Below, piece by piece: positions 1,546 through 55,519 of a DNA stretch of 64,000 bases. The notes beneath the pieces were generated by a model, which ran no database searches, had not been told where the DNA came from, and saw nothing but the letters and a program-made list of their open reading frames with translations. The stretch spans positions 202,564-266,563 of the forward strand of contig JAEOTO010000032.1 of the NCBI GenBank assembly GCA_016839805.1. The letters are read 5' to 3'. Source of the DNA: Candidatus Hermodarchaeota archaeon (GTDB taxonomy: Archaea; Asgardarchaeota; Hermodarchaeia; Hermodarchaeales; Hermodarchaeaceae). The position numbers and the translations under genes were made by a program. The number at the start of each line of letters is the position of its first letter. Within the stretch, counting starts at the first letter, position 1.

Positions 1546-2781
1546 ATGGATGACCCACGCCCACTTGATCGCATCTTCGAACGTTTTAGTACCGGGCCCT
1601 CCCTCATTCGTGATAGGAAAGTTCTCTGGCATTCATATGTTCCGGATGAATTACCTCATCGTGAAGAACAAATCACCCAGATTGGAAGCATTTTGGCAAC
1701 TGGGTTGAAAGGAAGTCGCCCGTCTAATGTTTTTGTGTATGGGAAACCTGGAACGGGGAAAACGGCAGTAACTCGGTATGTCCTTCGAGAGTTGACAACT
1801 AAATTTGGAGAGCTTCAGTTACCTTTCAAATCGGTGTATTTGAATTGTCGTAACGTTGATACTGATTATCGGGTTCTGGCCCGAATTTGTGCAGAGTTGG
1901 GTCAAAAGGTTCCTTTTACTGGGTTGCCAACTGACGAAGTTCATTCGCGTCTTATTGAGTTGTTGGAAAGCCAGGATTTACTCACTATTATTGTTCTTGA
2001 TGAAGTTGACCGTTTGGTTTTGAAGAGTGGAGATGACACCCTGTATAAATTAACGCGAATTAATTATGAGCTATCAAATTCACGGGTTAGTTTAATTGGG
2101 ATCTCTAACGATCTTCGATTTCCTGAATACTTGGACCCGCGGGTGTTGAGTAGTTTAAGTGAGGAAAAGGTCATTTTTCATCCGTATACGGCATTACAGC
2201 TGCAGGATATCTTACGACGCCGTAGTTCTCATGGCCTAAAAGATGGAATTCTTGAAGAACCTGGTGTAATTAATTTGTGTGCGGCGCTGGCTGCACGAGA
2301 AGAGGGTGATGCAAGACGCGCTTTAGATCTATTTCGAGTTTCGGTAGAGGTCGCTGAACGCGAAGGAAGTAAAGATGTTTCAGTTGACCACGTTGAAAAG
2401 GCACGTTTAAGCATTGAGCGAGATACCGTGCTCGAAGTGCTCCGTACACTTCCTTTACAACAGAAATTGGTTCTTTATGCTGTTTACATACTGGGTCGTT
2501 ACAAACATCCACATCCTGTAACGGGGGAAGTTCAAGATGTGTATGGCGATTTATGCAATGAATTAGGGATTGACTCTCTAACGCAACGTCGTGTTAGTGA
2601 TCTTATCAATGATTTAGATGCCATTGGGCTAGTAAATGCTAAGGTAGTCAGTAAGGGGAGGTATGGCCGGACAAAGATAATTCGGTTGAGCGTTTCAAAC
2701 AAAATGGTAGCTGAAGTTTTAGAACGTGATAGCCGAATTAAAACGCTCTCAAGTTATATACCGAAAAATCTTGGAAAATAA
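1546..2781 (+). CDS. orc1: Orc1/Cdc6 replication initiator
   Basis: 411 aa. Walker A GKPGTGKT, Walker B VLDEVD, AAA+ lid and a C-terminal winged-helix region. Adjacent to the ORB elements. Confidence 0.95.
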   Translation: MDDPRPLDRIFERFSTGPSLIRDRKVLWHSYVPDELPHREEQITQIGSILATGLKGSRPSNVFVYGKPGTGKTAVTRYVLRELTTKFGELQLPFKSVYLNCRNVDTDYRVLARICAELGQKVPFTGLPTDEVHSRLIELLESQDLLTIIVLDEVDRLVLKSGDDTLYKLTRINYELSNSRVSLIGISNDLRFPEYLDPRVLSSLSEEKVIFHPYTALQLQDILRRRSSHGLKDGILEEPGVINLCAALAAREEGDARRALDLFRVSVEVAEREGSKDVSVDHVEKARLSIERDTVLEVLRTLPLQQKLVLYAVYILGRYKHPHPVTGEVQDVYGDLCNELGIDSLTQRRVSDLINDLDAIGLVNAKVVSKGRYGRTKIIRLSVSNKMVAEVLERDSRIKTLSSYIPKNLGK

Positions 2782-2805
2782 TTGTCCGGTAATGAGGGTT
2801 CTTCT

Positions 2806-3384
2806 ATGTTTGGTGTTCCACGTGGTTCAATTCGTTTGGTGGGTTATGCGTTTCGGGCCTTAGGAAAAAAAACTATACCTTTGCAGCAATTAATTTTTTT
2901 TCTCTCTTTTGATTTAAGACAAATGACTCCTTCCAAAGCAAAGAAATTTATTCACGATTTACATGCTGACGGAAGAATTGTATTTAAAGACGATTTGGTC
3001 TCATTACCTCCTGACCTTGTGATTGAATCGGAACAGCCTACATCTAGTTCTACTGAAAACTTAGGGGCCTTACTCCAGCACTTCGTTAGCAATTCACGCC
3101 TTTCTCGGGCAGTAGGGATGAGTAATCAAGCCCTAGAAATTAAAATAGCTTCACAAAACCCATTAAGACTAGAAGCTAAAGTACATGGGTCCCAGGATTA
3201 TATTCTTGTTCTTGATGAGGCCCTAAGACAAATTCAGCATAATTGTCCTGATTGGAAACGAGTAAGTGTGCTTCACCGGTTTTGTAAGCATGTGGCGAAA
3301 CTCTTTTTGTTATTAGAAAAAGATGAGTCGATTAGGGTTTTACAGTCTTTGCAAGAGGAATCGTGGGATTTTGTTCAGCTTTGA
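2806..3384 (+). CDS. Hypothetical protein with C-terminal SWIM-like H-C...C-H motif
   Basis: The ORF track starts at TTG 2782; the first ATG is 2806 (MFGVPRGS...). C-terminus HNCPDWKRVSVLHRFCKH resembles a SWIM zinc finger lacking the second Cys. Its 3' end overlaps the dp1 3' end by 10 nt (convergent). Confidence 0.5.
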   Translation: MFGVPRGSIRLVGYAFRALGKKTIPLQQLIFFLSFDLRQMTPSKAKKFIHDLHADGRIVFKDDLVSLPPDLVIESEQPTSSSTENLGALLQHFVSNSRLSRAVGMSNQALEIKIASQNPLRLEAKVHGSQDYILVLDEALRQIQHNCPDWKRVSVLHRFCKHVAKLFLLLEKDESIRVLQSLQEESWDFVQL

Positions 3385-4946
3385 GTGAAATTCAGAGTTT
3401 TCACATTAAGGGTTTGAAGATTGACAAGTGGAATGATTCCGGGTGTTGGTTCGATTCCGATAAGCTTTTGATAATTAGTCTGACTCTGAAAGGTACCGGA
3501 ATTAATGAGAAGGGTTTTCCGGTAACTTCCTACGCTGGTAACATGAACATGTCCGCAATGGAGTATATCAGGTACCTCATCGATAACTAGCCAATCACGG
3601 GGCTCGGGTGCTAATGTAGTCCCAATTCGGTCGTCTTTCTTTTTTCCGTAAATTGGGGCAAGGTGTCGACCACGAAGCATCTCTCGCATTGCAACGAACC
3701 TTGCCTCCATTTCGGGTTTAGAAAGAGCGGCCATGATATCTACTAAACTGTCACCATGATAGATGAGGACATTGACTCCATGAAGACTCACTTGCGAAGG
3801 GCATCCTAGCGAAGTTACTTCAGTTCCTGAATCGTTGAGTACACTTAGAAACTTCTCATCGATTGCAGGTCGAGGTAAAGCTAACCGAACTCCATCATGG
3901 TTACCAGGCGCTATTAAGACTTGAATGTGATTAGGGATTTCTTGAAGAAGACGATTCAGTCCCTTGAATTGACTATCAAGGTCATGAATGGTAATTTCAG
4001 CAAGTTGGTTCGGGTAAATTCCAATTCCATCAACAAGGTCGCCATTTATTATGATATATTTCACGTTACCCGCTAGCTCAATATGTTCCTTACTACCTTC
4101 CTTTCCCTGCAGCCAATCAAGAACTCTTTGGAATATTTTATCCAGAAAATGCTGGCTTCCAAAATGTATATCGGAAATCAGTAACGCGCTAATGTCCTCT
4201 TTAGCACGATTATTACGGCGATTAGATGGGATGTCGGGTAGAAACAAATCCTTTGCAATGAGCATTTCAGAGCTGATGATCGCACCTTCTATGCAAAGCA
4301 CTTGGTCGAGTAAAACTAATTGTACTTTGGAAAAGAGATTCGGGTCCCGATTCTGCACTATGACAGTGACTCGTCCTGTTAGGTCGTCCAATTCTATAGC
4401 AATATTCCCACTCTTTGTCATAGTCTTTTTCGTGACTTGACCAACAATTTTGATTGTTCTATCTTTATCATTCGTTGTGTTCTTCTTTGATTTCATTGCA
4501 TCTTGGATGTCAATTATTCCCTTTCCATCTACTCGTTGGCTTAAGATGTCACGTAATCGGTAATATCGATCCTGAAAATTTGAAAGAAAGTCATCAATAG
4601 TGCCCTTGCCACGTAATTCGGGTGTAGGATCTTTGAGAATCTTGATTTCCGATTTTATGCCTTCTGCCGGCTGTCTTTTTTTTGTTGGCTGTGTTATTGG
4701 TTTCGTTGGTTTAGCGTCTTTTTCTTTGGTTATCTCAGGCGGTTCAATCCGAGGTAATTGAAAATGTGTGGGTTTGAGAACAGGAGTTTCTAAAGGGTGA
4801 ATTTTGTTTGTTGATAGAAAGGTATCCACAATCTGGTTTGGATTTGGTTCTTTTTGCAACATATCTAAGGTTTCTGGGCTAATTTGGAATCCGGCTTTGA
4901 TTAATTTCGCAACAGCTGTTTGTACGTTGGTTTCTTCTGTTGACAC
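3375..4946 (-). CDS. dp1: DNA polymerase II (PolD) small subunit DP1
   Basis: 523 aa. Calcineurin-like phosphoesterase motifs LISDIHFGS, INGDLVDG, GNHD, GHVH follow an OB-fold-like middle region. Confidence 0.9.
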   Translation of the reverse strand: MSTEETNVQTAVAKLIKAGFQISPETLDMLQKEPNPNQIVDTFLSTNKIHPLETPVLKPTHFQLPRIEPPEITKEKDAKPTKPITQPTKKRQPAEGIKSEIKILKDPTPELRGKGTIDDFLSNFQDRYYRLRDILSQRVDGKGIIDIQDAMKSKKNTTNDKDRTIKIVGQVTKKTMTKSGNIAIELDDLTGRVTVIVQNRDPNLFSKVQLVLLDQVLCIEGAIISSEMLIAKDLFLPDIPSNRRNNRAKEDISALLISDIHFGSQHFLDKIFQRVLDWLQGKEGSKEHIELAGNVKYIIINGDLVDGIGIYPNQLAEITIHDLDSQFKGLNRLLQEIPNHIQVLIAPGNHDGVRLALPRPAIDEKFLSVLNDSGTEVTSLGCPSQVSLHGVNVLIYHGDSLVDIMAALSKPEMEARFVAMREMLRGRHLAPIYGKKKDDRIGTTLAPEPRDWLVIDEVPDILHCGHVHVTSVGSYRKTLLINSGTFQSQTNYQKLIGIEPTPGIIPLVNLQTLNVKTLNFTQS

Positions 4947-5047
4947 GCCTTATCGCCAATACATCAATGGGCAGTTATCTTTTTTGTAGAGTTCGGTTAG
5001 GATGATATCATAAGGAACCTTAACGAATATTATCAAGAACTCGATTT

Positions 5048-6016
5048 ATGGTGGTATCCATGGAGGCAAGGAAGTTACAGCAAGTTGGGGCGACTTTTCT
5101 TCTCTCAGTTCCCAAACACTGGGTCGAAGAACAAGGCCTGAAAAAAGGTTCGATGATTATTGTACATGAACGCGTGGATGGAATGCTGATAATTGATCCT
5201 GGTCTAGTTGAAGAACCATTGAAATTACGAAGTGTAATCACTAATCCGTCGAATTTGGGGCGTAATATTTTAGCAGGGTATCTTGCGGGGAATGATGTTA
5301 TTGAGGTTAATCTTGGGAATGAGATGACTCCGGTACTAAAACGTGAAATCAAGCGTATGTCTCAGTTTTTGGTTGGAGTTGAGATTATGGAAGAGGATGC
5401 GTCTACAATGACACTCCAATGTCTAATTCCACGAAGTATTGACTCTCGAACTTATTTGCGACGTACTTATGGTATCGCTGCAAAGATGCATGAAGACGCA
5501 ATACGTGCTTTTATTCGGAATGACCAAGAATTGGCACAAGATGTGATTAACCGAGATCGCGAAGTGGATCGATTATATTTCCTTGTTGTTCGTCAGCTCC
5601 GGAAAGCTATTGCATCACCCACTGGTGACCTTATGCTTTCCCCACTTAATCTCCTCGATTATCGGCTTGTTGCCAAGGAAGTAGAAGCTATTGCAGATGG
5701 TTGTGCAAGTATCGCCGAACAAGTGATTACAGAAGGTTATGTGGTTCCTCCTCGTCCATTTGCACGTGTTCTAACGGAAATCAGTCAACAAGTCCTCCTC
5801 GCACATCGAGAGGCTATTACAGCGGTTATTAAACAAGATAATAACCGGGCACGGCGTGTTATTGCCCTTCAAGAAAAAATTTCAAGGCTTGTTGTTGAAA
5901 TAACTGAGGTATTAGCAAAACAGGACACATCGGTATTACCCGTCTTTGATCGGGTAATCCATAATCTTGAAAGAATCTTTGAATCTAGCATTGATATTGC
6001 GGACCTTGTAATATGA
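5048..6016 (+). CDS. AbrB/SpoVT-domain plus PhoU-domain protein (archaeal PhoU-like regulator), copy 1
   Basis: N-terminus KLQQVGATFLLSVPKHWVEEQGLKKGSMIIV is a swapped-hairpin AbrB-type domain, followed by two PhoU-like helical repeats. Paralogue at 24846-25838. Confidence 0.75.
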   Translation: MVVSMEARKLQQVGATFLLSVPKHWVEEQGLKKGSMIIVHERVDGMLIIDPGLVEEPLKLRSVITNPSNLGRNILAGYLAGNDVIEVNLGNEMTPVLKREIKRMSQFLVGVEIMEEDASTMTLQCLIPRSIDSRTYLRRTYGIAAKMHEDAIRAFIRNDQELAQDVINRDREVDRLYFLVVRQLRKAIASPTGDLMLSPLNLLDYRLVAKEVEAIADGCASIAEQVITEGYVVPPRPFARVLTEISQQVLLAHREAITAVIKQDNNRARRVIALQEKISRLVVEITEVLAKQDTSVLPVFDRVIHNLERIFESSIDIADLVI

Positions 6017-6028
6017 ATAAATATGGAG

Positions 6029-6125
6029 TGGCGCGGAGTAGGGGATTTGAACCCCTGCGACCAGATGGTCACTGGATAACCCGATTTATCTCGAGTCCAG
6101 CGCGTTACCGCTCCGCCAACTCCGC
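6029..6125 (-). tRNA. tRNA-Ser(CGA), class II, with a 12-nt intron at the canonical 37/38 site; CCA encoded
   Basis: Hand fold of the minus strand: GCGGAGT-TG-GCGG-AGCGGTAA-CGC-G-CTGGA-CTCGAGA-[TAAATCGGGTTA]-TCCAG-TGACCATCTGGTCGC-AGGGG-TTCAAAT-CCCCT-ACTCCGC-G-CCA. Confidence 0.85.
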
Positions 6126-6241
6126 TAGAATTTTGAATATGACGGTACTCGCCAATAAACGTTTTTTCTCCTCTTTATCTTGTTTCACCCAAACACTTTA
6201 TTTCCTGGGACGAGTCCCACAACTCAAATAGGTGAATCTCT

Positions 6242-7090
6242 TTGGTCCAATCAAAAGACGTAACAGCTATACAAAGGAAGTATAAAATCATTGGGCGCCA
6301 AGACATAATAACTCAATGTCTTGCTTCGGATCAGGCAGATAAACATCTTCTTATCGAAGGACCAGTTGGTGTTGGCAAAACCACGATTGCTTCAGCTATA
6401 GCTGATTTCTTAGGGCGCTCTTTTTTCCGTGTTGATGGGGATGAACGTTATACTTCAGCAAAGCTGGTTGGTTGGTTTGATCCCCCCGTTGTGTTGCAAC
6501 AAGGCTATACACGCGACACTTTCGTTCCGGGTCCATTAATTGAAACTATGGAAACTGGTGGGGTACTTTTTATTAATGAAATCAATCGGATGCCTGAAGC
6601 AACGCAAAATACATTACTCCCTGTCATGGATGAAGGGCGCTTACATGTACCCAAATTAGGAACAATCCTTGCAAAAAATGGTTTCCGCATTATTGCTACA
6701 CAAAATCCTGAAGCCAGTGTGGGTGTTACACCTCTTGGTGAGGCGCTTCGTGATCGCTATGTCTGGTTGTACTTGGACTATCATTCTGAATCAGAAGAGC
6801 AAGAAATTGTGAAAATAAATACTGGCGTTAAAGATGAAGAAATTCTCAATATTGCTGTAGCTATTACACGTGCGACACGTGATTATGTCGACATTTTACG
6901 AGGGGCCAGCGTTCGGGGTGCAATAGATACCGCTAGTTTATACAAACAACTTCCTGGGGATGGTCATAAAATTTGGGAACAAGCAGCGGTGATGTCGCTG
7001 GTGCCAAAAATCGAATTGAATGATAATGCCCAAAAATCACCAGTTGAAGTGATATTAACCTTAGTAAAATCAATTTTAGCAAATTTTTGA
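6242..7090 (+). CDS. MoxR-like AAA+ ATPase
   Basis: 282 aa. Walker A GPVGVGKT. Walker B region reads LFINEINRMPEATQNTLLPVMDE (Asn where MoxR proteins usually have Asp). TTG start per the ORF track. Confidence 0.85.
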   Translation: MVQSKDVTAIQRKYKIIGRQDIITQCLASDQADKHLLIEGPVGVGKTTIASAIADFLGRSFFRVDGDERYTSAKLVGWFDPPVVLQQGYTRDTFVPGPLIETMETGGVLFINEINRMPEATQNTLLPVMDEGRLHVPKLGTILAKNGFRIIATQNPEASVGVTPLGEALRDRYVWLYLDYHSESEEQEIVKINTGVKDEEILNIAVAITRATRDYVDILRGASVRGAIDTASLYKQLPGDGHKIWEQAAVMSLVPKIELNDNAQKSPVEVILTLVKSILANF

Positions 7091-8160
7091 TCACGGAGGA
7101 GGCTGTGCCCTCCGATGACGTGCCTATTGTACTGTCGGGGACCATTTCAGATGAGAAACTATTTGAATCGGAAATCCGTGCTAGTGGGCGTGATTTTCAG
7201 TACTATCTTCGGCTGGGACGGACATTTGACTATCCTGCTGCTAAACAAATGGCTGAACTAGCCATCGAATTCGGTAACGTATCCGCGTTGCAAGCCTTGG
7301 CTCAACTCCAACCTATTGCCACTAGTGAAGCGATTTCCAGTCAAAATGGCGTTCACTTGATTGCGCGTTCAGCCCGAGAAGGTAATGTCGCTGCGCCCTT
7401 ACTTTTTTTCCAACTCCGACATCAAATTCGAGGTAAATATCGAGAAACTTTCCGAAAACTTGCCCGTGCTACCATTATCCATTCAGCGCTCCGGATTAGC
7501 GGTCGTGGTTTACGACCTGAAACAATTCAAAATGTTCCTTTCCATCCAGGTCTCAATGAATTCGATCTGGATGCTACACTAGAAGAAACCCTTCTAAAAC
7601 CTGAATACGTTAGTTATACCGACATTGTCGGCATCGAGCGTGTAGCTCGAAGAAAAATCGGTACCATCATTCTCGATACTTCAGGATCCATGGCAGGTCT
7701 CAAATTGCTTACTGCCGCAACAGCAGCTGCGGTTGCTGCTTACCATCTTCGGCACGATAAATACGCGCTCATCGCTTTCAATACTGTCGCAAATACTGTC
7801 AAATCAATGGATCAACATACCACCATTGATTCTATCGTTGACACAATCCTCGATACCGAACCCGCTGGTTATACAAATATTGCTGACGCTCTCAAAACGG
7901 CTTATACCCAATATGAGCGCTCTCACCGGTATGAATCCTGGGCTATTCTCATTACTGACGGTATCGCCAACCGTGGTGGGTCACCAGAACCCTTTGCTCG
8001 TAAATATCAAAACCTCCATGTTCTTCAGACACCTGGGACTCATCCCCAAGGTGAAGAAACCTGTCAACGCATCGCACTACTCGGTCGTGGACGTCACATT
8101 AAGGTAAACTCCTACACCGAAGTGCCACGTGCCCTAATACGACTCTTACGACATACATAA
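7087..8160 (+). CDS. von Willebrand factor A (VWA) domain protein, MoxR partner
   Basis: 357 aa. MIDAS motif ILDTSGSM and downstream ITDG. Overlaps the MoxR stop by 4 nt. Confidence 0.8.
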   Translation: MITEEAVPSDDVPIVLSGTISDEKLFESEIRASGRDFQYYLRLGRTFDYPAAKQMAELAIEFGNVSALQALAQLQPIATSEAISSQNGVHLIARSAREGNVAAPLLFFQLRHQIRGKYRETFRKLARATIIHSALRISGRGLRPETIQNVPFHPGLNEFDLDATLEETLLKPEYVSYTDIVGIERVARRKIGTIILDTSGSMAGLKLLTAATAAAVAAYHLRHDKYALIAFNTVANTVKSMDQHTTIDSIVDTILDTEPAGYTNIADALKTAYTQYERSHRYESWAILITDGIANRGGSPEPFARKYQNLHVLQTPGTHPQGEETCQRIALLGRGRHIKVNSYTEVPRALIRLLRHT

Positions 8161-8520
8161 CAAGAGAAAGTTGGTTAATAGGGGAAAGGACAAACGCCTA
8201 ATGGACCAATTTCTTCTCCAGGAAGAGGATACACATAATTCACCAAAAGTTGGTGTGTAATTTCATACTTAAACACCAAAACATTTCGTACTATAGTATC
8301 GAAACAAAACCAAACTCATTTACTCAATTTTACAAACGAATCTAAACAAACTTCGTAAGGCCAAATTACTTGCAAAAACTCTCTCAAAATCTCGTAAAAA
8401 TAGTCCAACTCTTTTCGTGTAATTTTCTTTGTTTATATAGAATTTTAGAACGGCTCCTATAGTAATAACAACTATGGAGGCATCTAACAAAATGTACCCC
8501 CCGCAACATCCCTTCCCTTA

Positions 8521-10278
8521 TTAAAAACTATTTTTCCTCCTTTTTTTTGACTTAATTTTTGGTAGTGTATTCTCTGTCCATACCCATTTTTTTGCATCAA
8601 AATCATAGTACTTTGGTTGAATTGGTGATTCAAAACCTGTCATTGCCTGCCAAGTAGGTTTCACTTGAAATGCTACATTGATTTCCTGGTTTGAAAAGAT
8701 TTTTTGTAATGTTGATAGAACATCAACAGCATTATGATTCGGGACATAAAGGAAAACATAACCATTACCATTTTCAAGAATTACTCCACTAATATTAGGA
8801 AGTATATGAAGCGATTGAAGTACTTGTATAGTTATTTCTCGTGGTTCGAAAATGTAAATTTGGATTACTGTGTCCAAGCCCACGTGGTAAAGAATCAATC
8901 CTTGTAGTTTGCTTACGTTGTTTTTTTCTAATTTCTTTATTTGTCTCCTAAATTTCATATGAGCTGAATCTGCAAGACCTGCGTAACGGGCTTCAAGTGA
9001 TGGTTGTGCTGCTACTCGATCTGTGCTGAGAATAATTCTGTGATCTCGTCTAAAATATATGAAATCCTCAGGATTCAATTGAACAGGGAATTTCTGAGTG
9101 CTCTGTAATAAGTTGTAGGAAAATTCCAGTGAATACGTTTTTGGTATTTCTTCAACTGGTATCTCTTCTGATAAAATTGTACGAGATTTTTCGAGAATAA
9201 CCGAAAAGTCTTGGGGCCATCCAATTTCGGGTATATATGAACTAAGATTCCAGTTGTTAATAATCTCAGAGCTTCGTACGTTCATTAATATTGAGATCTT
9301 CTCTTGAACCACGAGGTCTTCTAACCAATCGTTAAAGGTCATTCTTTGGTTGTTTGGGATAAGTACTCTACAATGAAGTAGGTTATCCTGAATGAGGTTA
9401 ATTAACCAGGTGTAACAAATTTCAGAAAAGAAAGATGAAATCTGCTGGCATTTCTTTTGGCTTGGTATCTGTAGAATTACCTCATGGGGAGTTAATCCGA
9501 TTAATGGTAAGTTGATAAAGTGATATAAGCGAAGTAGATGTCTTTGAGCAAGTTTATTCAACGCTTGACTAAGAGCAGAAGGGGTCATTTGAAGTTGTTT
9601 AGCAAGTTTGCTTTGATGGAGGGTAGTTATGTGTTTCAGCGTCAAAAGGATACGTAGCTCACTACTCGTAAGAGGGGTATGGGTCTCAAGCATCCACCGT
9701 TCAAGGGCGGCAGTATAGGTTGATGTGGCGAGGGGAGTGCCGGTGCTTGTGGGACGAATAGTGTTAAGCCAGTGGAGGGCGCGGTGGAGAAAGCTGCCGG
9801 CAACAACTTGATCGAAGAGGGGGAAGCCTAAGGGCGCGTCGTATATGTAGTGCTGGTAGTGTTGGGGTGGGGACACCTGCTTCCAGATCTTGGTAAACGC
9901 CTTATATTCAGATTCGGTATAGTTGCCGTAACGGAGACCAGCGTAGAGGCCAAGGTCAGCCGCTTCGGGGATGTGACGTAGGTGAGGTAGAAGAAGGCTT
10001 AGGAGGGCTTCCCGCCAAAGCACCCAATCTAAGACATGGGAGTCAGCATCTTTGAGGTCCCGGGCGAGGGCAACGTACCAACCGCCGCGTAGTTGGTTCG
10101 CAAGTTGTGTTTCAAGAGCGCCAAAGCGTGGGCGATCATAGATTAACGGGTTGTCACCCCATACGAGGTAAAGAATACGGTCTTGCTTCCGGAATAAGGA
10201 ATCCATAATGAGCTCGGTGGCTAATTGATCCTGTTTACGATGGAACCTTTGCATCAGCTCACGCGACCTCGATGACAA
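8521..10278 (-). CDS. Uncharacterised 585-aa protein with internal MarR-like wHTH (paralogue A)
   Basis: Long clean ORF. wHTH segment LAKQLQMTPSALSQALNKLAQRHLLRL. Colinear similarity over its full length to the ORF at 10635-12365. Confidence 0.85.
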   Translation of the reverse strand: MSSRSRELMQRFHRKQDQLATELIMDSLFRKQDRILYLVWGDNPLIYDRPRFGALETQLANQLRGGWYVALARDLKDADSHVLDWVLWREALLSLLLPHLRHIPEAADLGLYAGLRYGNYTESEYKAFTKIWKQVSPPQHYQHYIYDAPLGFPLFDQVVAGSFLHRALHWLNTIRPTSTGTPLATSTYTAALERWMLETHTPLTSSELRILLTLKHITTLHQSKLAKQLQMTPSALSQALNKLAQRHLLRLYHFINLPLIGLTPHEVILQIPSQKKCQQISSFFSEICYTWLINLIQDNLLHCRVLIPNNQRMTFNDWLEDLVVQEKISILMNVRSSEIINNWNLSSYIPEIGWPQDFSVILEKSRTILSEEIPVEEIPKTYSLEFSYNLLQSTQKFPVQLNPEDFIYFRRDHRIILSTDRVAAQPSLEARYAGLADSAHMKFRRQIKKLEKNNVSKLQGLILYHVGLDTVIQIYIFEPREITIQVLQSLHILPNISGVILENGNGYVFLYVPNHNAVDVLSTLQKIFSNQEINVAFQVKPTWQAMTGFESPIQPKYYDFDAKKWVWTENTLPKIKSKKRRKNSF

Positions 10279-10349
10279 TATTTAGCCATCCAACCACACG
10301 ATGACTATACAAGGGATTCAGGTTAATTTTACCTTCCGATTATCCTTGA

Positions 10350-10393
10350 AGTATCAATAAATAAAAGAAAGGAAGGAAACCATCGAGGTTTCC
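10350..10393 (-). terminator. Hairpin plus oligo-T: candidate terminator of paralogue B
   Basis: Perfect 7-bp stem GGAAACC/GGTTTCC (10375-10393). On the minus strand it is followed by TTCCTTTCTTTTATTTATT. Lies between the stop of B and the start of A. Confidence 0.35.
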
Positions 10394-10634
10394 TTTTAGT
10401 AAGTACTAAGTAGGAATCGATGTATGTCCCTTTTTATTTCCTAAATATCATGAGGGTCAGGACGACGAGGGGGCCACATTGTTTTGATGCCTCCGAGGGT
10501 TATCTACTCTTCATTTCATGTAAGTTTCCCTTTAAAGACCGAAAATTATTTGCAAAAAGTAGGATGGATTTTTTTTCTAAATGGACTTTTTGTGTAATAA
10601 TCTGGTTATTGGTTGTTACATTCATGAATAATTA

Positions 10635-12365
10635 TCAGGTGCGAGGTAGTGGCAAGGTATCTTTTGTCCATATCCACATGTTTTTTCCAAAGTCGTAGTT
10701 AACAGAATCTATAGTATATGGTCCCGTCCATCCATAAGCTTCCCACGCAGGTCTAATTGCTGTAACGGCCGGAATTTCAAGGGCAGTGAGTAATTCGTTT
10801 AAGGAGATTTGTAGATATACAGCGGACTCAGAAGGTACAAGAAGTGTAGCAACACCAGCTCCATCATCGAATATTCTTCCTGCAACGTGTGGAAACAGTT
10901 GACACGCAGTGAAGATTAGGCGAGTTTCCTCTATTGATGATTCAAGGTATAGATAGAGAGCAGTATTTAAGCCAATATTTAACAACCCAAGTCCGAGTGG
11001 TGGGCTAATTACTTCATTTTTTTCAAGATATTTGACACGTCGACGATAAGCCATGTGTTCAGATTCTTTATATCCAGCCTGCCTCAACTCATGGGACTCA
11101 AAAAACTTCATGTGCTCAGTAGCGAGATAAGCATCAGATGCTCTTTGCATGAAAAAGAAATCTTGTTGTTTAATCTCGATGCTTTTTTTCGAATGAGAGG
11201 AAGCCAGCTTGTAAAAGTTAATGGGTGGTAAATGTGGAATCCATTCTTCTGATATTAATCTCGAAAAATTGTCAAATATTGATTCGATTTCAAGGGACCA
11301 GCCATCCTTTTGGGGGTCGTACAGATTAAAGTTTCGAGCGTGCATTCTTTCTGAAATCATTCGTAGTTCCGGTGAGCTAAGACCATAACTTGAAGACACT
11401 TGTTTAAGCCATTGGCGGAATCGTGTCATTCGTTCTGTTGGAATTAAGAATGAAGCTAAAAGCTGATTATTGAATTCTTGAATTGCAAGTGCATAACGAA
11501 TTCTAGAGATTATTTGCGTCAGGGAATTTTTAATTCTCATATTCGAAGTAGAAAATTTGACTGTGATTGGTTGAAGACCAAGTATCGGATAATTTTCGAA
11601 GATAACAAACCGTAAAAGGTGTTTTTCTGCAAGTCTTTTAATTACTTGACTTATTGTTGGCTGGCGGATGTTGAGTTTATCAGCTAATTCGATCTGTGAA
11701 CAGGTAAGACAATTGTTAATGCCCTTTAGGATTTTAAGTTCTATTGGTCGTAAAATTCTGTGATAGTTGAACATCCAGCGTTCGAGATTCTCAGCATAAG
11801 TCTGTGTGGTCATCTTCGTTGATAGTTGAAAGAATGGTTTGAACCATAGTTTGGTCTTCTGGAGAAAGGTACCATCTACAAGTTTATCGAAAAACGGAAA
11901 CCCTGCTGTGGGAAAATAGCGGTAAAAGGTATATTCTATAGGTGGTGATGTAATTTCCCAGATTTGGAGAAACCAGTGTCGCTGCTTCTTGGTTCTGAGT
12001 GCATAGCGGGAGTAGCAATATAGACCGAGATCAGAGGCTTCTTTTACAGAGCGTACTATTTTGGGTATGTGGAGTAGATAGGCTTCACGCCATAATACCG
12101 CATTAAGAAGATTCCTACGTTCAGTAAGCAATTCTTCCGATAATTCCAAAGTTAATTGATTGTTGGTGCTTGTTTCGTTAGCACCGAAGCGTGGTCCGGT
12201 GAGTTCGATTGGGTTTTGGATCCAGCGAATAGTAGTATACGTGTCGAGGGATTCGGTACCAATAATCTGTTGTAATTGTCGTGCGATTTCATTAAAACGA
12301 TGCAAAGCTTCTGTCTTTCGTTGCTTAAGGATTTCATCTGAAATTTTAGAAGGATTTGTATTCAT
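10635..12365 (-). CDS. Uncharacterised 576-aa protein with internal MarR-like wHTH (paralogue B)
   Basis: Long clean ORF. wHTH LADKLNIRQPTISQVIKRLAEKHLLRF. Shares conserved blocks with paralogue A (listed in findings). Confidence 0.85.
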   Translation of the reverse strand: MNTNPSKISDEILKQRKTEALHRFNEIARQLQQIIGTESLDTYTTIRWIQNPIELTGPRFGANETSTNNQLTLELSEELLTERRNLLNAVLWREAYLLHIPKIVRSVKEASDLGLYCYSRYALRTKKQRHWFLQIWEITSPPIEYTFYRYFPTAGFPFFDKLVDGTFLQKTKLWFKPFFQLSTKMTTQTYAENLERWMFNYHRILRPIELKILKGINNCLTCSQIELADKLNIRQPTISQVIKRLAEKHLLRFVIFENYPILGLQPITVKFSTSNMRIKNSLTQIISRIRYALAIQEFNNQLLASFLIPTERMTRFRQWLKQVSSSYGLSSPELRMISERMHARNFNLYDPQKDGWSLEIESIFDNFSRLISEEWIPHLPPINFYKLASSHSKKSIEIKQQDFFFMQRASDAYLATEHMKFFESHELRQAGYKESEHMAYRRRVKYLEKNEVISPPLGLGLLNIGLNTALYLYLESSIEETRLIFTACQLFPHVAGRIFDDGAGVATLLVPSESAVYLQISLNELLTALEIPAVTAIRPAWEAYGWTGPYTIDSVNYDFGKNMWIWTKDTLPLPRT

Positions 12366-12486
12366 TGTGAGAGTTCCCGTGGTTTTCCCTAGACTAGTCT
12401 ATTCATGAATATGACATCTTAATAGTCTTAGGAAGAATAAGTGATTGAAGGTGTGGAGTTTTTCTATTCTATAGTCTTGAGATGAA

Positions 12487-12660
12487 TGGCGCGACTGCTT
12501 GGTCGTAGTCCGGGTGGCTGAGCGGTGTACAATCTGTGGGGTGGTTGGATGCCTCGCAACAATAATCGATTGCACATCTCCCCTCGTTGGATCCGACTGC
12601 CGATTGAGGGTCCGGAATCGTGCCGGGGGTACAATACGGTAGTCGGAGCACGGCCACTAC
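12487..12660. ncRNA. GC-rich structured-RNA candidate of unknown class (strand unresolved)
   Basis: About 175 nt. A 60-nt line inside it counts 62% GC, against an AT-rich flank. Two homologous modules lie 102 nt apart, and there is a long near-perfect hairpin at 12592-12652. It sits in the tRNA cluster. Confidence 0.4.
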
Positions 12661-12710
12661 GTTAGCCAATTTTTATCAGAAATTGCTAACAGTTCAAATA
12701 GCAGAAGAAG

Positions 12711-12830
12711 TGGTAGCGGGGGGTTGATTTGAACAACCGATCTCGGGGTTTCCCAAGGGGATTTATGAGCCCCGCGGGATATCAGGTCTCGGTGAGGAAC
12801 ACCAAGATATCCTGGCTACCCCACCCCGCT
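12711..12830 (-). tRNA. Initiator tRNA-Met(CAT) with two introns (D loop and anticodon loop); CCA encoded
   Basis: Minus strand: AGCGGGG-TG-GGGTAGCCAGG[..~28 nt..]ATCCC-G-CGGGG-CTCATA[~14 nt]A-CCCCG-AGATC-GGTTG-TTCAAAT-CAACC-CCCCGCT-A-CCA. A1:U72 and three G-C pairs next to the anticodon loop are initiator hallmarks. Confidence 0.8.
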
Positions 12831-12938
12831 TCCGAAGATAATGGGAATCGTTAGAGAAGAGCCGGCGTTATTGATTTAAGCTTTGTGCCTTGAAGAAGAT
12901 AAGCAACCGGTTCGCTTTGAGTGATGGAGAAGAAGTAG

Positions 12939-13015
12939 TGGTGGGTCGGACGGGCTTCGAACCCGCGACCTCTCGGTTATCAGCCGAGTGCCCTACCAAG
13001 CTAGGCCACCGACCC
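12939..13015 (-). tRNA. tRNA-Ile(GAT), uninterrupted, CCA encoded
   Basis: GGGTCGG-TG-GCCT-AGCTTGGTA-GGGC-A-CTCGG-CTGATAA-CCGAG-AGGTC-GCGGG-TTCGAAG-CCCGT-CCGACCC-A-CCA (77 nt). Confidence 0.9.
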
Positions 13016-13086
13016 ACTCGTTGTTCGGGATTGCGCGTAGGGTTTTTCGTTTATATGGGTTTTGCCGATGCAGTGATGGGGTGAGT

Positions 13087-13161
13087 TGGTGGAGTGGCCG
13101 GGATTTGAACCCGGGGCCTCGTGTGTGCGAGACACGCGATCTACCGCTGATCTACCACCCC
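13087..13161 (-). tRNA. tRNA-Ala(CGC), uninterrupted, CCA encoded
   Basis: GGGGTGG-TA-GATC-AGCGGTA-GATC-G-CGTGT-CTCGCAC-ACACG-AGGCC-CCGGG-TTCAAAT-CCCGG-CCACTCC-A-CCA. The G3:U70 Ala identity pair is present. Confidence 0.9.
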
Positions 13162-13174
13162 ACTGGGTTCGGGG

Positions 13175-53635: not shown

Positions 53636-55519
53636 TCAGATGGGAAGCGGGAGAACGAAGAGAAGTAAGATGAGGGAAATGATGAACGCAACTGCATAGA
53701 TGATAATTCCCCACCTTTTTGCAACGCTTGCTGAAACGGGAATAAGGCTCGTTAGCTTATCAGCAGTTCCTTGACCCATTACTACAAGGGGTTCAGTGGT
53801 TCCCTGGTAAAGTGCCACATTTCCTGGCTCAAGTTTTGTGGTCGCTTCTCTTACAAGTTCGATAATTTGGCTTGTCAGGTCCTCGTGAGATATTAGTTCT
53901 CCTATGGGACTATACCCATTAGAGGCAGAAATTGCAGCGGTTTGGTGGGTATCTGAAGTCATGATTTCTGCAGCGTCCACATGTTGTGGAACAAGAGCGT
54001 TAACAATTTTTTCTCGGAATCCCACTACCATGTTATTTCCATCGAGGAGGACATAAGCCATCTTCTGACCTGCCACTTCAATAATCGAAACAGTAATCCC
54101 TTCTGAACCCATTCCTTCGCCTTCCGTATACCCCGTTTCTGTTCTTTGCGCAACTCCTATCTCAGGTTTACCCCGTGCAGTTTTTAATGCCTCACGAACA
54201 GCAGTTTTTGCAGCGGCAATCATATCAGGAATTAACTCAGATCCTTCATATACTGATTCTTTGAGCTCACTCATACAATTATGCGTATCAATGATAATAC
54301 ACCGTTTTATGAGGCTCTTCAATTCCGAAGTAATTTGCTCCGCTACAGCTAAGCTAATGTCATCCATTTCGATGGGAGAACGAGTAAACAGGAGAACCGC
54401 AGTATCTCCAAAAACTTGACAACCAACATGTATTGTTCCCGAAGTTGTTCGACAAAATTGACTCACATCCGAAATGGGCGTCGTCTGTTCATAAGCGGTC
54501 TGAACCATATTCATGAATCGTTCGACCTCGTTCTTTGAGACGAGGTTCAAATCATGAGTGGAGGCACTGTGTGGCGAACAGGCAATTGAATTCAATGTTG
54601 TTCGTCCCCATTCACCAATTCGGGTAGGTAGTGCGCTGCTACCTGTGTTTTTAAAAGGACCCGGGTGTGCTCCCGGAATGACCGTTACCAATAATGGATC
54701 TTTGGTGTTAGTACTAAATTTCATAACCGATAACGGTAGGATTTTCTCCTGCCCTATCTGGGTAAGGCTTTCTTCCATAAGATCTGCTCTGTCTTCCATC
54801 CAAACTTCAAGGAACCCCCTGAACATCTGAATTCCATCAACACTGAAGGCTTTTTTCAATGGGTGTCCGACTGCAGTAAGCAAAATCCCTGAGCCACTAA
54901 TAAATGTCAAAGTACAGAGGAAATAAATTATAAGGAAAATCCATTGTGTCGGAACAGGTTCTGTTAAAACGTACATCACCATTGCAGTTGTGGGAAAGAC
55001 AAGTGTGAGAAAGACTCCGCCTGTAACGCCAACACGACTTGTGCTTAACACGATAAGGAGCAAAATCGCTGATGTAAACGCAGCCGCTAGGATCAGATTT
55101 CGAAGGTAGAATGTTGTCGCAATCCCTCCACCTGCTAGAGGACCATAATGAAGCTTGAAAATAATCTCAATTGTCCATCCAATAAGTGTTGAAAGAAACC
55201 AGATAAGTAAGAGAACAATGACCGCTGTTGTTACGACTCCAAGGAGTCGATGCCAATTCAAAATAGTTCCCTTGCGTGTACCAAGACGGAAAGCAAGCAA
55301 AGTTAACAGCGCTGCAGGTATTGTGATTATCAACCCACGGATTGCCCCTCTCAGAAACACCATGCCAGTAAATGGACTGCCACCAAGGTATCGGAGAAGC
55401 TCTGTTAGGCCACCAACAAGAAGTGATGCCCCGAATATTATTATAATTTGCGTACGATTCCTCGGCAAACTAAAGAGCCGTTTGTAAAGCGAAATCGTGC
55501 TCTGGACATCCTCGCTCAT
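53636..55519 (-). CDS. Large polytopic membrane protein with soluble middle domain (DUF2070-like)
   Basis: 627 aa. About 6 N-terminal TM helices, a ~330-aa soluble region, and a C-terminal TM. The family assignment is from memory of the architecture only. Confidence 0.6.
   Translation of the reverse strand: MSEDVQSTISLYKRLFSLPRNRTQIIIIFGASLLVGGLTELLRYLGGSPFTGMVFLRGAIRGLIITIPAALLTLLAFRLGTRKGTILNWHRLLGVVTTAVIVLLLIWFLSTLIGWTIEIIFKLHYGPLAGGGIATTFYLRNLILAAAFTSAILLLIVLSTSRVGVTGGVFLTLVFPTTAMVMYVLTEPVPTQWIFLIIYFLCTLTFISGSGILLTAVGHPLKKAFSVDGIQMFRGFLEVWMEDRADLMEESLTQIGQEKILPLSVMKFSTNTKDPLLVTVIPGAHPGPFKNTGSSALPTRIGEWGRTTLNSIACSPHSASTHDLNLVSKNEVERFMNMVQTAYEQTTPISDVSQFCRTTSGTIHVGCQVFGDTAVLLFTRSPIEMDDISLAVAEQITSELKSLIKRCIIIDTHNCMSELKESVYEGSELIPDMIAAAKTAVREALKTARGKPEIGVAQRTETGYTEGEGMGSEGITVSIIEVAGQKMAYVLLDGNNMVVGFREKIVNALVPQHVDAAEIMTSDTHQTAAISASNGYSPIGELISHEDLTSQIIELVREATTKLEPGNVALYQGTTEPLVVMGQGTADKLTSLIPVSASVAKRWGIIIYAVAFIISLILLLFVLPLPI

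Follow-up and report, generated by a model that had tools for sequence, protein, structure and literature searches.

What can two adjacent genes do when their products, each about 580 aa long, fall into no recognised family? They lie in a 64,000-nucleotide stretch of DNA from a Candidatus Hermodarchaeota archaeon, here called the window, where a sequence-only reading had picked them out as same-strand, colinear paralogues. Both reading frames (585 and 576 aa) are indeed present on the minus strand, gene A at 8521..10278 and gene B, with an ATG start, at 10635..12365. The start of A can be read in two ways: TTG at 10278 gives 585 aa, and the ATG at 10254, eight codons downstream, gives the 577 aa of the public protein set (entry P0001). 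Because the orthologue N-termini MSSEDRELFQRF and MSKRFRELMQQF align to the residues of A that follow the TTG (SSRSRELMQRF), the longer reading is at least as good as the shorter one.

An ancient pair in Asgard archaea

The paralogy is secure. BLASTP aligns A and B colinearly from end to end, far above chance (32% identity and 49% positives over 577 aligned residues, 21 gaps, E 1e-80). The motif blocks quoted earlier are all found in the translations and all align, namely PRFGA.ET, VLWREA.L, DLGLY, SPP..Y..GFP.FD..V.G.FL, LERWM, the helix-turn-helix (HTH), HM.(F/Y)RR..K.LEKN.V and YDF....W.WT..TLP, and most are invariant or nearly so over 71 homologues. Compared with the nearest relative, dN/dS is 0.16 for A and 0.15 for B; therefore, both are real coding genes under purifying selection. 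They nevertheless diverge faster than their neighbours, with 45-70% identity against 80-92%.

A phyletic profile, proposed earlier as a check, places all named homologues in Asgard metagenome-assembled genomes (MAGs), and the family is restricted to Asgard archaea. A belongs to one clade and B to another. The pair is ancient: the two clades are only ~32-34% identical, and both have orthologues of their own that share contigs. Of 17 distinct loci (16 from a genome scan, plus L004), 15 have A next to B, and this adjacency, together with the separate orthologue clades, is consistent with obligate partnership. A and B are fast-evolving, Asgard-specific sister proteins that are built alike.

Two Lrp-like modules in one chain

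That the family is unrecognised was borne out. Pfam detects only an HTH core (residues ~203-250), through 47 of the 59 positions of the MarR model PF01047 (25.6 and 26.6 bits in the two proteins; cut-off 24.6). Its Lrp-specific models (HTH_AsnC-type, AsnC_trans_reg) match neither A nor B significantly, and NCBIfam yields nothing above cut-offs for either. The earlier description of this winged helix (wHTH) as MarR-like holds in so far as PF01047 just passes its gathering threshold, but an Lrp/AsnC type fits better. The HTH is flanked by an Lrp-type RAM domain, not by the helical dimerisation domain that defines MarR. Against PDB sequences the family profile finds Pyrococcus horikoshii PH0061 over the whole HTH+RAM unit (2dbb residues 2-142, E 6.8e-7), and its other top matches, LrpC and FL11, are also DNA-binding Lrp/AsnC proteins matched over HTH+RAM.

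The AlphaFold2 model of A (pLDDT 92.4, pTM 0.88) contains a wHTH followed by a beta-alpha-beta-beta-alpha-beta domain twice over. The predicted architecture of both proteins is an N-terminal domain of ~190 aa, two tandem Lrp/AsnC modules and a Trp-rich tail. Module 1 of A (9250..9666, minus strand; residues 197-335) would comprise a wHTH at 197-252, with the Pfam MarR match at 203-249, and a RAM-like domain at 253-335. Module 2 (8656..9072, minus; residues 395-533) would comprise a degenerate wHTH and a second RAM-like domain. The tail (8524..8655, minus; residues 534-577) ends in the basic sequence KIKSKKRRKNSF, and conserved positions in its region are P533, W535, N549-Y550-x-F552, W557, W559 and L564-P565. 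In B, with limits approximate as they were carried over from A by the BLASTP alignment, the N-terminal domain lies at ~11760-12365, module 1 at ~11331-11747, module 2 at ~10749-11168 and the tail at ~10638-10748, all on the minus strand. The suggestion that a RAM-like domain follows each HTH is supported by the modelled topology, by the Foldseek matches described below and by hhalign, which finds units 1 and 2 colinear (E 1e-3); in distant relatives, Pfam itself picks up the second HTH.

With pI values of 9.0 and 9.1, A and B are basic, as is the family (mean 8.8), and the mean net charge across the family is +3.5 for the first wHTH, +4.2 for the first RAM-like domain and +2.1 for the second wHTH. 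The recognition-helix equivalent of module 2 carries a near-invariant H-M-x-Y-R-R-R-V-x-x-L-E-K, and in the family alignment the Y-R-R-R of this helix 3 is itself near-invariant. From such features we infer that A and B bind DNA.

The module that is doubled here is a classic DNA-binding unit that senses amino acids. Classical Lrp/AsnC (feast/famine) regulators are single modules of ~150 aa that dimerise and form octamers. The members compared, PH0061 (2dbb), FL11/PH1519, Bacillus subtilis LrpC and Escherichia coli AsnC/Lrp, share with A and B the order of a wHTH and a RAM-type domain and the basic HTH regions; the family profile spans a whole module of ~140 residues, and many members are matched by Foldseek with probability 1.0. 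In contrast, A and B join two modules in a 580-aa chain, the second strongly diverged, and add the N-terminal domain, a 60-aa linker and the tail. Also comparable are archaeal tandem Lrp/AsnC proteins of 310-380 aa (P0197 from a Hodarchaeales MAG, P0162, P0165), which have two HTH+RAM modules per chain and are matched by the family profile in two stretches (E 1e-10 to 1e-16). These lack the N-terminal domain and tail and, unlike A and B, are readily matched by Pfam HTH_AsnC-type and AsnC_trans_reg. They are ordinary proteins of that class and match DNA-binding regulators in the PDB rather than NirDL. Members of the wider superfamily occur in unrelated genomic contexts, as is usual for regulator families.

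The single best structural match of A is an enzyme, a point that runs counter to DNA binding. Foldseek against the PDB places first the fused double-Lrp siroheme decarboxylase NirDL (4ch7/4czc; E 3e-7, 352 columns, TM 0.53 when normalised to the target), followed by more than 25 Lrp/AsnC regulators with probability 1.0. In siroheme decarboxylase the HTH does not bind DNA, and the tetrapyrrole is held in a barrel of two RAM-like domains. A and B might then be a non-DNA-binding enzyme on a double-Lrp scaffold, akin to NirD-L-G-H or AhbA-B, with the N-terminal domain supplying a further catalytic or substrate-binding site. NirDL and AhbA-AhbB (4ch7, 4czc, 4un1) also have paired Lrp-like modules, fused in the former and heterodimeric in the latter, and paralogous subunits encoded side by side; A plus B would contain four modules, the number in NirD+L+G+H. 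The N-terminal domain is rich in invariant charged residues, and chelatase subunits are among the best weak NCBIfam matches of the neighbouring AAA+ and VWA proteins, albeit far below cut-offs.

Several observations speak against this, and we regard such an enzyme as distinctly improbable. Pfam NirdL-like_HTH and AsnC_trans_reg2 give no match on A or B at E<=1, the sequence of the modules is closer to DNA-binding regulators than to NirDL, and NirDL has neither the N-terminal domain nor the tail. No ahbC/ahbD/nirJ-type radical-SAM or other tetrapyrrole gene occurs in the conserved neighbourhood. Siroheme decarboxylase depends on histidines, one of which, on a beta-strand, binds siroheme (PMC4835899), and the title of Haufschildt et al. 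2014, as cited in PMC10548856, speaks of 'two essential histidine residues'; in residues 197-577 of the A/B family no histidine is invariant or at least 90% conserved, the RAM-like domains included. NirDL probably ranks first because it is the sole solved fused double-Lrp protein.

The N-terminal domain

The family-specific N-terminal domain (9679..10278 in A, minus; residues 1-192 of P0001) had been called unplaceable, and so it proved: neither sequence nor fold gave a significant match in Pfam, NCBIfam or the PDB. In the model, a helix is followed by three strands and a helical bundle. The one lead is a sub-threshold resemblance to small zincin-like peptidases, the sub-threshold BFVD fold matches being enriched in IrrE N-terminal-like and SprT-like proteins. 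WRExxL stands where such peptidases have HExxH, so zinc-dependent proteolysis is unlikely; the domain may derive from a small zincin fold that lost both zinc-binding histidines and kept the glutamate.

IrrE/PprI and ImmA-type (COG2856) regulators combine a zincin-like domain, an HTH and a small-molecule-binding domain, and A and B may be analogous, with a minimal zincin-like domain, an HTH and an alpha/beta sensor-type domain. The downstream domains, however, are Lrp-type instead of XRE-HTH/GAF, and the N-terminal domain has no significant fold or sequence match to these regulators. Its invariant residues (R43, W80-R81-E82, R93, D100, G102, W124, S128, Y136, Y138, F144 and E185 in P0001) are among about 15, mostly polar or aromatic, that would suit a catalytic or a protein-interaction site no less than a sensor. 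We interpret the domain as a putative sensor or partner-binding domain, unique to this family.

Neighbours, expression and proposed role

Beside the pair, on the plus strand, lie genes for a MoxR-type AAA+ ATPase (6242-7090; AAA_5/AAA_3, 282 aa) and a VWA protein (7087-8160; 357 aa). A conserved linkage, suggested earlier as a check, is real in the close clade and absent further away. Among all close relatives MoxR and VWA are linked to B-A, and 14 loci, with three macro-arrangements, retain the order MoxR > VWA > B > A. In one of these, the whole PhoU-MoxR-VWA-B-A block has changed its position or orientation with respect to Orc1/DP1 and ValRS. In the window and its nearest relative (L006), B-A is locally inverted and the adjacency is still kept; P0094, a B-like copy that stands alone, also has a MoxR-VWA pair at a distance of 2 kb.

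The known MoxR/VWA systems, CbbQO, NorQD and CoxDE among them, remodel their targets or load cofactor onto them. MoxR ATPases are often paired with proteins joining a zincin-like and a VWA domain, and the N-terminal domain of A and B bears a sub-threshold resemblance to zincins. A and B could thus be clients, adaptors or regulatory subunits of MoxR/VWA, with DNA binding secondary or absent, perhaps in a four-protein machine whose ATPase remodels the A/B complex or loads a cofactor onto it. We consider this possible though unlikely; it excludes DNA-binding regulators only in part. The genomes concerned are closely related (Orc1 85-92%, MoxR 82-87% identical), so shared synteny is weak evidence, and no MoxR-VWA pair is found near distant members in Odinarchaeia and the other Asgard MAGs examined. 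Between B and VWA lie 0.5-2.4 kb that hold RNA genes, and B has a promoter-like box to itself; in the window B-A is convergent with VWA. Constraint on MoxR and VWA is about 4x that on A and B, which argues against tight co-evolution.

Replication genes are also close. Within 1-8 kb of B-A there are always orc1/cdc6 and the gene for the PolD small subunit. In one arrangement another orc1/cdc6 paralogue comes directly after A, and then a small HTH_5 protein and RFC; a distant Odinarchaeial homologue has a cdc6 + HTH_5 pair 2 kb away and RFC and RadA nearby. It is very improbable that A and B are origin- or chromatin-associated proteins of a 'replication island' instead of gene-specific transcription factors: other distant homologues sit in unrelated contexts, conservation of the replication genes far exceeds that of A and B, a search beside either gene gave no origin-type repeats, and proximity is weak evidence where the genomes are close relatives and the region is compact and syntenic.

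B appears to have its own promoter. About 55 nt upstream of the B ATG is a nearly invariant CCGAATACTATTAAGA-type box (12417..12432, minus; CCTAAGACTATTAAGA in the window), a probable BRE/TATA promoter. The B-A spacer contains a micro-ORF encoding MWPPRRPDPHDI (10441..10479, minus), 225 nt upstream of the A ATG. Ahead of this micro-ORF lie a TATA-like CTTTAAAG (10530-10537) and, closer to it, the Shine-Dalgarno sequence GGAGG (10490-10494). The micro-ORF consensus of 10-14 codons, M(x)(W/Y)PPxRP(D/E)P, recurs in 16/17 loci. Between it and A stands a terminator-like hairpin, AAGGAAACC-TCGAT-GGTTTCCTT (10373-10395), with a T-rich tract (10356..10395 in all, minus); hairpin and tract are kept in 15/16 loci with compensatory stem changes. 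The micro-ORF and hairpin may attenuate A; alternatively, the micro-ORF may be a very small gene in its own right. The search for operators gave no motif shared between species; a ATTCATGAAT palindrome near both promoters occurs only in this genome.

The most likely reading, to which we give a probability of about 0.5, is that A and B form a heteromeric regulator that binds DNA and has a sensor domain of a new type. Within the Lrp/AsnC superfamily the two Asgard-specific paralogues would stand out by their architecture: each would carry two complete modules fused head to tail, which makes possible an intrachain equivalent of the ordinary interchain Lrp dimer, as in NirDL. A and B, whose heteromer we infer from their co-occurrence, would form a hetero-oligomer of four modules equivalent to an Lrp tetramer. 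It would contact DNA through its basic wHTHs, above all the Arg-rich helix of module 2, and adjust transcription to a signal that the N-terminal domain, the RAM domains or both would sense; B would be under its own promoter and A behind the proline-rich micro-ORF and hairpin. Some coupling to MoxR-VWA may exist, as their lasting adjacency points to work connected with a protein-remodelling machine and not to plain transcription control. By prediction, A and B probably represent a novel type of transcription regulator.

Paralogy and predicted architecture of A and B

Genes A (8521..10278, minus strand, 585 aa, TTG start) and B (10635..12365, minus strand, 576 aa, ATG start) are neighbors, and BLASTP aligns their products end to end with 187/577 identities (32%), 49% positives and an E-value of 1e-80. 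The sequence-only reading had described them as an adjacent, colinear pair of paralogs. It was right, and as all the motif blocks it quoted are found in both proteins, and aligned, the relationship is genuine and far outside what chance would give. In the public protein set A begins eight codons downstream (P0001, 577 aa, whose residue numbering is used here). The residues following the TTG (SSRSRELMQRF) align with the N-termini of orthologs, so the 585-aa form is reasonable. Against the nearest relative, locus L006 from a ‘Hermod’ metagenome-assembled genome (MAG), dN/dS is 0.16 for A and 0.15 for B, and about 0.04 for the neighboring VWA gene, where dS is saturated. A and B are real genes under purifying selection, evolving several times faster than their neighbors. 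Full-length orthologs in at least 16 genomes and a dN/dS of ~0.15 rule out spurious ORFs or pseudogenes.

Pfam recognizes only the HTH core of the two proteins, as MarR (25.6 and 26.6 bits for A and B; cut-off 24.6), and NCBIfam offers nothing near its cut-offs for either. The AlphaFold2 (AF2) model of A, built on an alignment of 71 sequences (A1), is a single, confident body (pLDDT 92.4, pTM 0.88). It comprises an N-terminal domain of one helix, three strands and six helices (residues 1-192), a three-helix wHTH (197-252), a RAM-like beta-alpha-beta-beta-alpha-beta domain (254-335), a linker (336-394), a second HTH-like helical unit (395-447), a second RAM-like domain of the same beta-alpha-beta-beta-alpha-beta order (448-533) and a tail (534-577). 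The 25 invariant and about 60 nearly invariant columns of A1 are distributed along the whole length. Foldseek gives as the top PDB match the fused double-Lrp siroheme decarboxylase NirDL (4ch7, E 3e-7, 352 aligned columns; 4czc, E 1.3e-6), and after it dozens of Lrp/AsnC regulators at probability 1.0 over about 140 columns each. The family profile, searched against PDB sequences, covers the full module of Lrp/AsnC regulators (residues 2-142 of 2dbb, E 6.8e-7; LrpC and FL11 as well), its wHTH part aligning to residues 2-60 of 2dbb, 2p5v and 2cfx. Modules 1 and 2 are colinear in hhalign (E 1e-3), with the conserved H-M-x-Y-R-R-R-V-x-x-L-E-K of module 2 falling on the recognition helix of module 1. 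In distant relatives Pfam itself picks up the second HTH. Matches of the HTH_AsnC type are likewise confined to distant relatives, A and B giving MarR/HTH_24-type matches, and AsnC_trans_reg has no match in A or B by sequence alone.

The model, Foldseek, the profile match and hhalign together support the earlier suggestion that a RAM-like domain follows each HTH. The ‘MarR-like’ label once attached to the wHTH survives for the HTH core; its type is better described as Lrp/AsnC by profile, AF2 and Foldseek. MarR proteins (~140-160 aa) hold their wHTH between N- and C-terminal dimerization helices, whereas in A and B it has a novel domain on one side and a RAM fold on the other. With the Pfam match limited to the HTH core (203-249) and the flanks different, membership of the MarR family is rejected. 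As modelled and profiled, A and B carry both structural features of the Lrp/AsnC (feast/famine regulatory protein, FFRP) superfamily, an AsnC/Lrp-type N-terminal wHTH and, directly after it, a C-terminal RAM alpha-beta sandwich (effector/oligomerization). The usual member has one module of ~150 aa and works as a homodimer or octamer, whereas A and B are two modules fused in 576-585 aa and, beyond this fusion, add an N-domain, linker and tail of about 250 extra residues.

Both proteins are basic (pI 9.0 and 9.1 for A and B; family mean 8.8), and the positive net charge is concentrated in wHTH1 (+3.5), RAM1 (+4.2) and wHTH2 (+2.1). The pI of ~9, the positive HTHs and a conserved YRRR helix are indirect indicators that the proteins would bind DNA, which in this superfamily is sequence-specific and modulated by amino acids or other small ligands. 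In our main reading, to which we give a probability of about one half, A and B would bind DNA as a heteromeric regulator, with a new double-Lrp architecture and a sensor or interaction domain peculiar to the family.

The top fold match invites another reading, that A and B are NirDL-like enzymes. Siroheme decarboxylases (NirDL/NirGH, AhbA/AhbB) are also built from two Lrp-like modules, arranged as an alpha+beta barrel, and A shares this fold by Foldseek. The barrel of these enzymes is reported to contain essential histidines that bind siroheme or act on it (PMC4835899; Haufschildt 2014 via PMC10548856). Across the 71 homologs, no His in residues 197-577 is invariant or at least 90% conserved and one (HIGLN, ~457) is 60-90% conserved. 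The siroheme-decarboxylase models of Pfam (NirdL-like_HTH PF22451 and AsnC_trans_reg2) have no match in A or B at E<=1. The sequence affinity is with DNA-binding FFRPs: NirDL is not among the best 60 of 78 PDB sequence matches of the family profile at E<=1, and a PDB sequence search from a tandem-Lrp relative retrieves only DNA-binding FFRPs and not NirDL. Nor are pathway genes present, as the conserved neighborhood screened for haem association (Orc1, DUF2240, PolD-DP1, PhoU, MoxR, VWA, ValRS, aRF1, tRNAs) contains no ahbC/ahbD/nirJ radical SAM or other alternative-haem/haem d1 gene. An enzymatic function of this kind is improbable. A separate 503-aa protein in a Hodarchaeota-labelled MAG (L003, 17049-18560, minus strand), with faint HTH_AsnC/HTH_24 matches and a weak match to B (E 6e-6), adjoins a radical-SAM/Fer4_12 gene. 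It may be a genuine fused decarboxylase of the AhbAB/NirDL type, or else a further divergent member of the family.

The N-terminal domain and the range of the family

The sequence-only reading could not place the ~190-aa N-domain in any family, and current libraries (Pfam, PDB sequence, PDB fold) fare no better. Modelled alone, the domain is predicted with confidence (pLDDT 92.3, pTM 0.89). No PDB fold is significantly similar, the best E-value being 0.2 and the top matches, G-protein chains, being noise; PDB sequences give 0 matches at E<=10, and Pfam no consistent match over 31 members at E<=10. A profile of the domain searched against 5.8 billion proteins retrieves only fragments of the same family and nothing outside it. 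Distant full-length relatives retain the core of the domain: (I/L)xREAF, D100-L, W124, Y138 and F144.

A zincin-like origin is a lead rather than a finding, with odds that are roughly even. Nothing is significant among the BFVD predicted viral structures (best E 0.08, probability <=0.54, TM 0.25-0.42), and about 13 of the top 50, all sub-threshold, bear annotations such as SprT-like, IrrE N-terminal-like, zincin, matrixin or putative peptidase. A minimal gluzincin would have the same succession of elements: a helix, three strands, a helix with the invariant W80-R81-E82-A83-x-L85 and a helix with E97 and D100. Zincin metallopeptidases (SprT, IrrE/ImmA) have HExxH in the helix that follows a beta-sheet, whereas the corresponding helix of the N-domain lacks both His and keeps the Glu. 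Zincins do not occur among the PDB fold matches of the domain.

The 95 homologs divide into three clades, A, B and a small third one, with identities of about 50% inside the first two, 74% inside the third and 32-34% between clades. One gene of each type, A and B, occurs on many of the contigs. The family is restricted to Asgard archaea: all named homologs come from Asgard MAGs labelled by their submitters as Hermod-, Prometh-, Thor-, Hod- and Odinarchaeota, and the closest relative, L006, is 84% identical in A and 87% in B. Hermodarchaeota are placed in the kingdom Promethearchaeati. An exhaustive family HMM search over 1.84 billion representative proteins yields three tiers: 21 matches below 1e-30; full-length relatives of 520-590 aa between 1e-49 and 1e-10, whose named members are again from Asgard MAGs (Odinarchaeia, ‘Asgardarchaeia’, Promethearchaeota); and ordinary tandem Lrp/AsnC proteins of 310-380 aa. 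Literature searches on Asgard Lrp/MoxR, on tandem or fused archaeal Lrp and on archaeal leader peptides turned up no mention of the family.

Gene neighborhood

The neighboring genes in the window are archaeal. They encode Orc1/Cdc6 (1546-2781), a DUF2240-like product, the small subunit of PolD (3375-4946), AbrB-PhoU, the MoxR-type AAA+ ATPase (6242-7090) and the VWA protein (7087-8160), and beyond A and B come tRNA genes, ValRS, aRF1, an amino-acid kinase and GcvT. In 14 related-MAG loci, those of the close clade with enough flank, the order MoxR > VWA > B > A is kept on a single strand. There are three macro-arrangements: (i) Orc1-DUF2240-DP1-PhoU-MoxR-VWA-B-A, then ValRS; (ii) ValRS, then PhoU-MoxR-VWA-B-A, then DP1-DUF2240-Orc1; and (iii) Orc1-DUF2240-DP1-MoxR-VWA-B-A, then a second Orc1, HTH_5 and RFC. 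As the order persists across all three, the linkage is robust within the close clade, yet the clade is shallow. In the compared loci Orc1 is 85-92%, MoxR 82-87% and VWA 80-88% identical to the window, B 49-70% and A 45-56%. The submitters’ phylum labels for L001-L021 (Hermod-, Prometh-, Thor-, Odin-, Hodarchaeota) do not agree with the sequences: MAGs labelled Hermod-, Prometh- and Odinarchaeota span just these Orc1 and MoxR ranges and are therefore one fairly narrow lineage. The Thor-labelled locus has MoxR and VWA at 85-86%, with Orc1 off the contig.

The link to the MoxR-VWA pair thus holds in the window and in 14/14 close-clade loci, and it fails in distant relatives, as neither the Odinarchaeia members (P0114, P0105, P0248) nor the solitary third-clade P0056 has MoxR-VWA nearby; the Odin copy lies near cdc6, HTH_5, RFC and RadA. 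Close linkage of this sort is what might be expected if A and B were clients or adaptors of a MoxR-VWA machine, a reading partly compatible with the regulatory one and, with the pair missing from distant members, unlikely. MoxR and VWA are both generic proteins, the former of the AAA_5 type (GvpN/CbbQ/NorQ-like). PADLOC defense models have no match for A, VWA or PhoU, B matches only a Csa3 HTH (E 1e-3) and MoxR only generic AAA models; a known anti-phage defense system is rejected, as no PADLOC model fits.

Window 1546-8160 is a ‘replication island’, in which synteny with PhoU-MoxR-VWA extends to Orc1/Cdc6, the DUF2240-like gene and the small subunit of PolD in all relatives (loci L001-L021). 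In some lineages a second Orc1 paralog (31% identical), an HTH_5 protein and RFC directly follow A. That A and B, amid such genes, are origin or chromatin proteins is very improbable. A quick scan of the 570-bp region upstream of orc1 (973-1545) shows no clear origin-type repeats and one weak inverted repeat.

Only in the window and L006 is the B-A segment inverted, and so convergent with VWA, in which they differ from the 14 other loci. The inverted segment includes the RNA element upstream of B and tRNA-Met; the spacers concerned are 8160-8521 and 12366-13174. A degenerate, inverted copy of the tRNA-Met 3'-end (AAATGTACCCCCCGCAAC, 8490-8507), 83% complementary to 12713-12730, lies at the opposite breakpoint and may be a trace of the inversion.

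Upstream elements and candidate control of A and B

Footprinting over 17 loci reveals, some 55 nt upstream of B (12417-12432), a CCGAATACTATTAAGA box that hardly varies and is probably the BRE/TATA of this gene. The B-A spacer holds a conserved unit (10356-10537, minus strand), found in the same position in L001, L003, L004, L006-L008, L010-L012, L014-L017, L019 and L021. It consists of a promoter-like box made up of a T-rich/TTTTTGCA element and CTTTAAAG, the latter at 10530-10537, a GGAGG Shine-Dalgarno (10490-10494) and, downstream of this, a micro-ORF, MWPPRRPDPHDI (10441-10479), all on the minus strand. The micro-ORF has 10-14 codons in the various loci and the consensus M(x)(W/Y)PPxRP(D/E)P. 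Among its five Pro/Arg codons, the first, second and third positions have 0, 1 and 8 extra base states respectively, which shows that selection is on the peptide. A GC-rich hairpin and T-tract follow in 15/16 loci (window hairpin 10373-10395, with the T-tract 10356-10395, minus strand), and the stems show compensatory changes (GGAAACC/GGTTTCC, GGAACCC/GGGTTCC, AGAACCC/GGGTTCT, TGATAGCCC/GGGTTATCA). Micro-ORF and hairpin are candidates either for a proline-rich leader/arrest peptide attenuating A or for a separate tiny gene with its own terminator. Nearer A is another conserved box, AATCGGAAGGTA(A/G)AATTA, which could be A’s own promoter.

A search for a conserved operator gives ATTCATGAAT, a perfect 10-bp palindrome, as the sole over-represented one. 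Its three copies in the window (12401-12410, 10620-10629, 54509-54518) compare with 0.24 expected, and 0/100 shuffles reach three. Two are promoter-proximal (B; micro-ORF/A unit), inside a 17-nt near-repeat, TGTYAYATTCATGAATA. The palindrome is absent from every related locus, the nearest relative included; it is therefore lineage-specific, only a weak operator candidate, and has been dropped as evidence for an operator at the level of the family.

Further upstream of B is a highly conserved non-coding element of ~170-175 nt (window ~12478-12662, minus strand; core AGCCACCCGGAnnACGA at 12503-12519), always on the same strand as B in L001-L003, L006-L013 and L019, and missing within 10 kb in loci of arrangement (ii). 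The single-sequence folds of nine species (z -0.3 to -3.6) have in common GUGGCUG/CAGCCAC as the closing stem, one long hairpin and another at the 3' side; a MAFFT alignment folded with RNAalifold gives weak structure and no compensatory pairs. Rfam has no match at E<=10, and a tRNA is rejected by the lack of an ARAGORN call. The element is probably an undescribed structured RNA. Beyond it is an initiator-like tRNA-Met(CAT) gene (12711-12830, minus strand; AGCGGGG... start), interrupted by two insertions that the intron-less L004/L014/L015 copy lacks; the L021 copy has one. Default ARAGORN and Rfam overlook this gene, and ARAGORN finds it with introns allowed. Next to it are tRNA-Ile(GAT) (12939-13015) and tRNA-Ala(CGC) (13087-13161).

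A more elaborate proposal, which we consider rather improbable, would make A and B an Asgard-specific signalling complex of an undescribed kind, a double-Lrp hetero-oligomer whose N-terminal fold would be a histidine-less zincin derivative or entirely new. The N-domain would sense a peptide or metabolite, or would be remodelled by the adjacent MoxR-VWA chaperone, and synthesis of subunit A would be gated by an attenuator dependent on ribosome stalling by the nascent WPPxRPxP peptide. If true, this would be, for archaea, among the first attenuators of the leader-peptide type.

Among known prokaryotes, Asgard archaea are the nearest to eukaryotes and, to our knowledge, almost nothing is known of their gene regulation. 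The Lrp/AsnC module is the commonest archaeal regulator module; in A and B it occurs doubled and fused, together with a ~190-residue domain without counterpart in Pfam or PDB. The annotation ‘MarR family’ or ‘hypothetical protein’ should become ‘double Lrp/AsnC-like protein with N-terminal domain of unknown function’. We know of little documentation of leader-peptide control in archaea, and the proline-rich micro-ORF and hairpin upstream of A are a concrete candidate for it. The pair lies beside origin-proximal replication genes and the highly conserved MoxR-VWA chaperone pair, of which A and B are obvious candidate targets. If A and B are regulators, they would represent both a new architecture and a new sensor domain.
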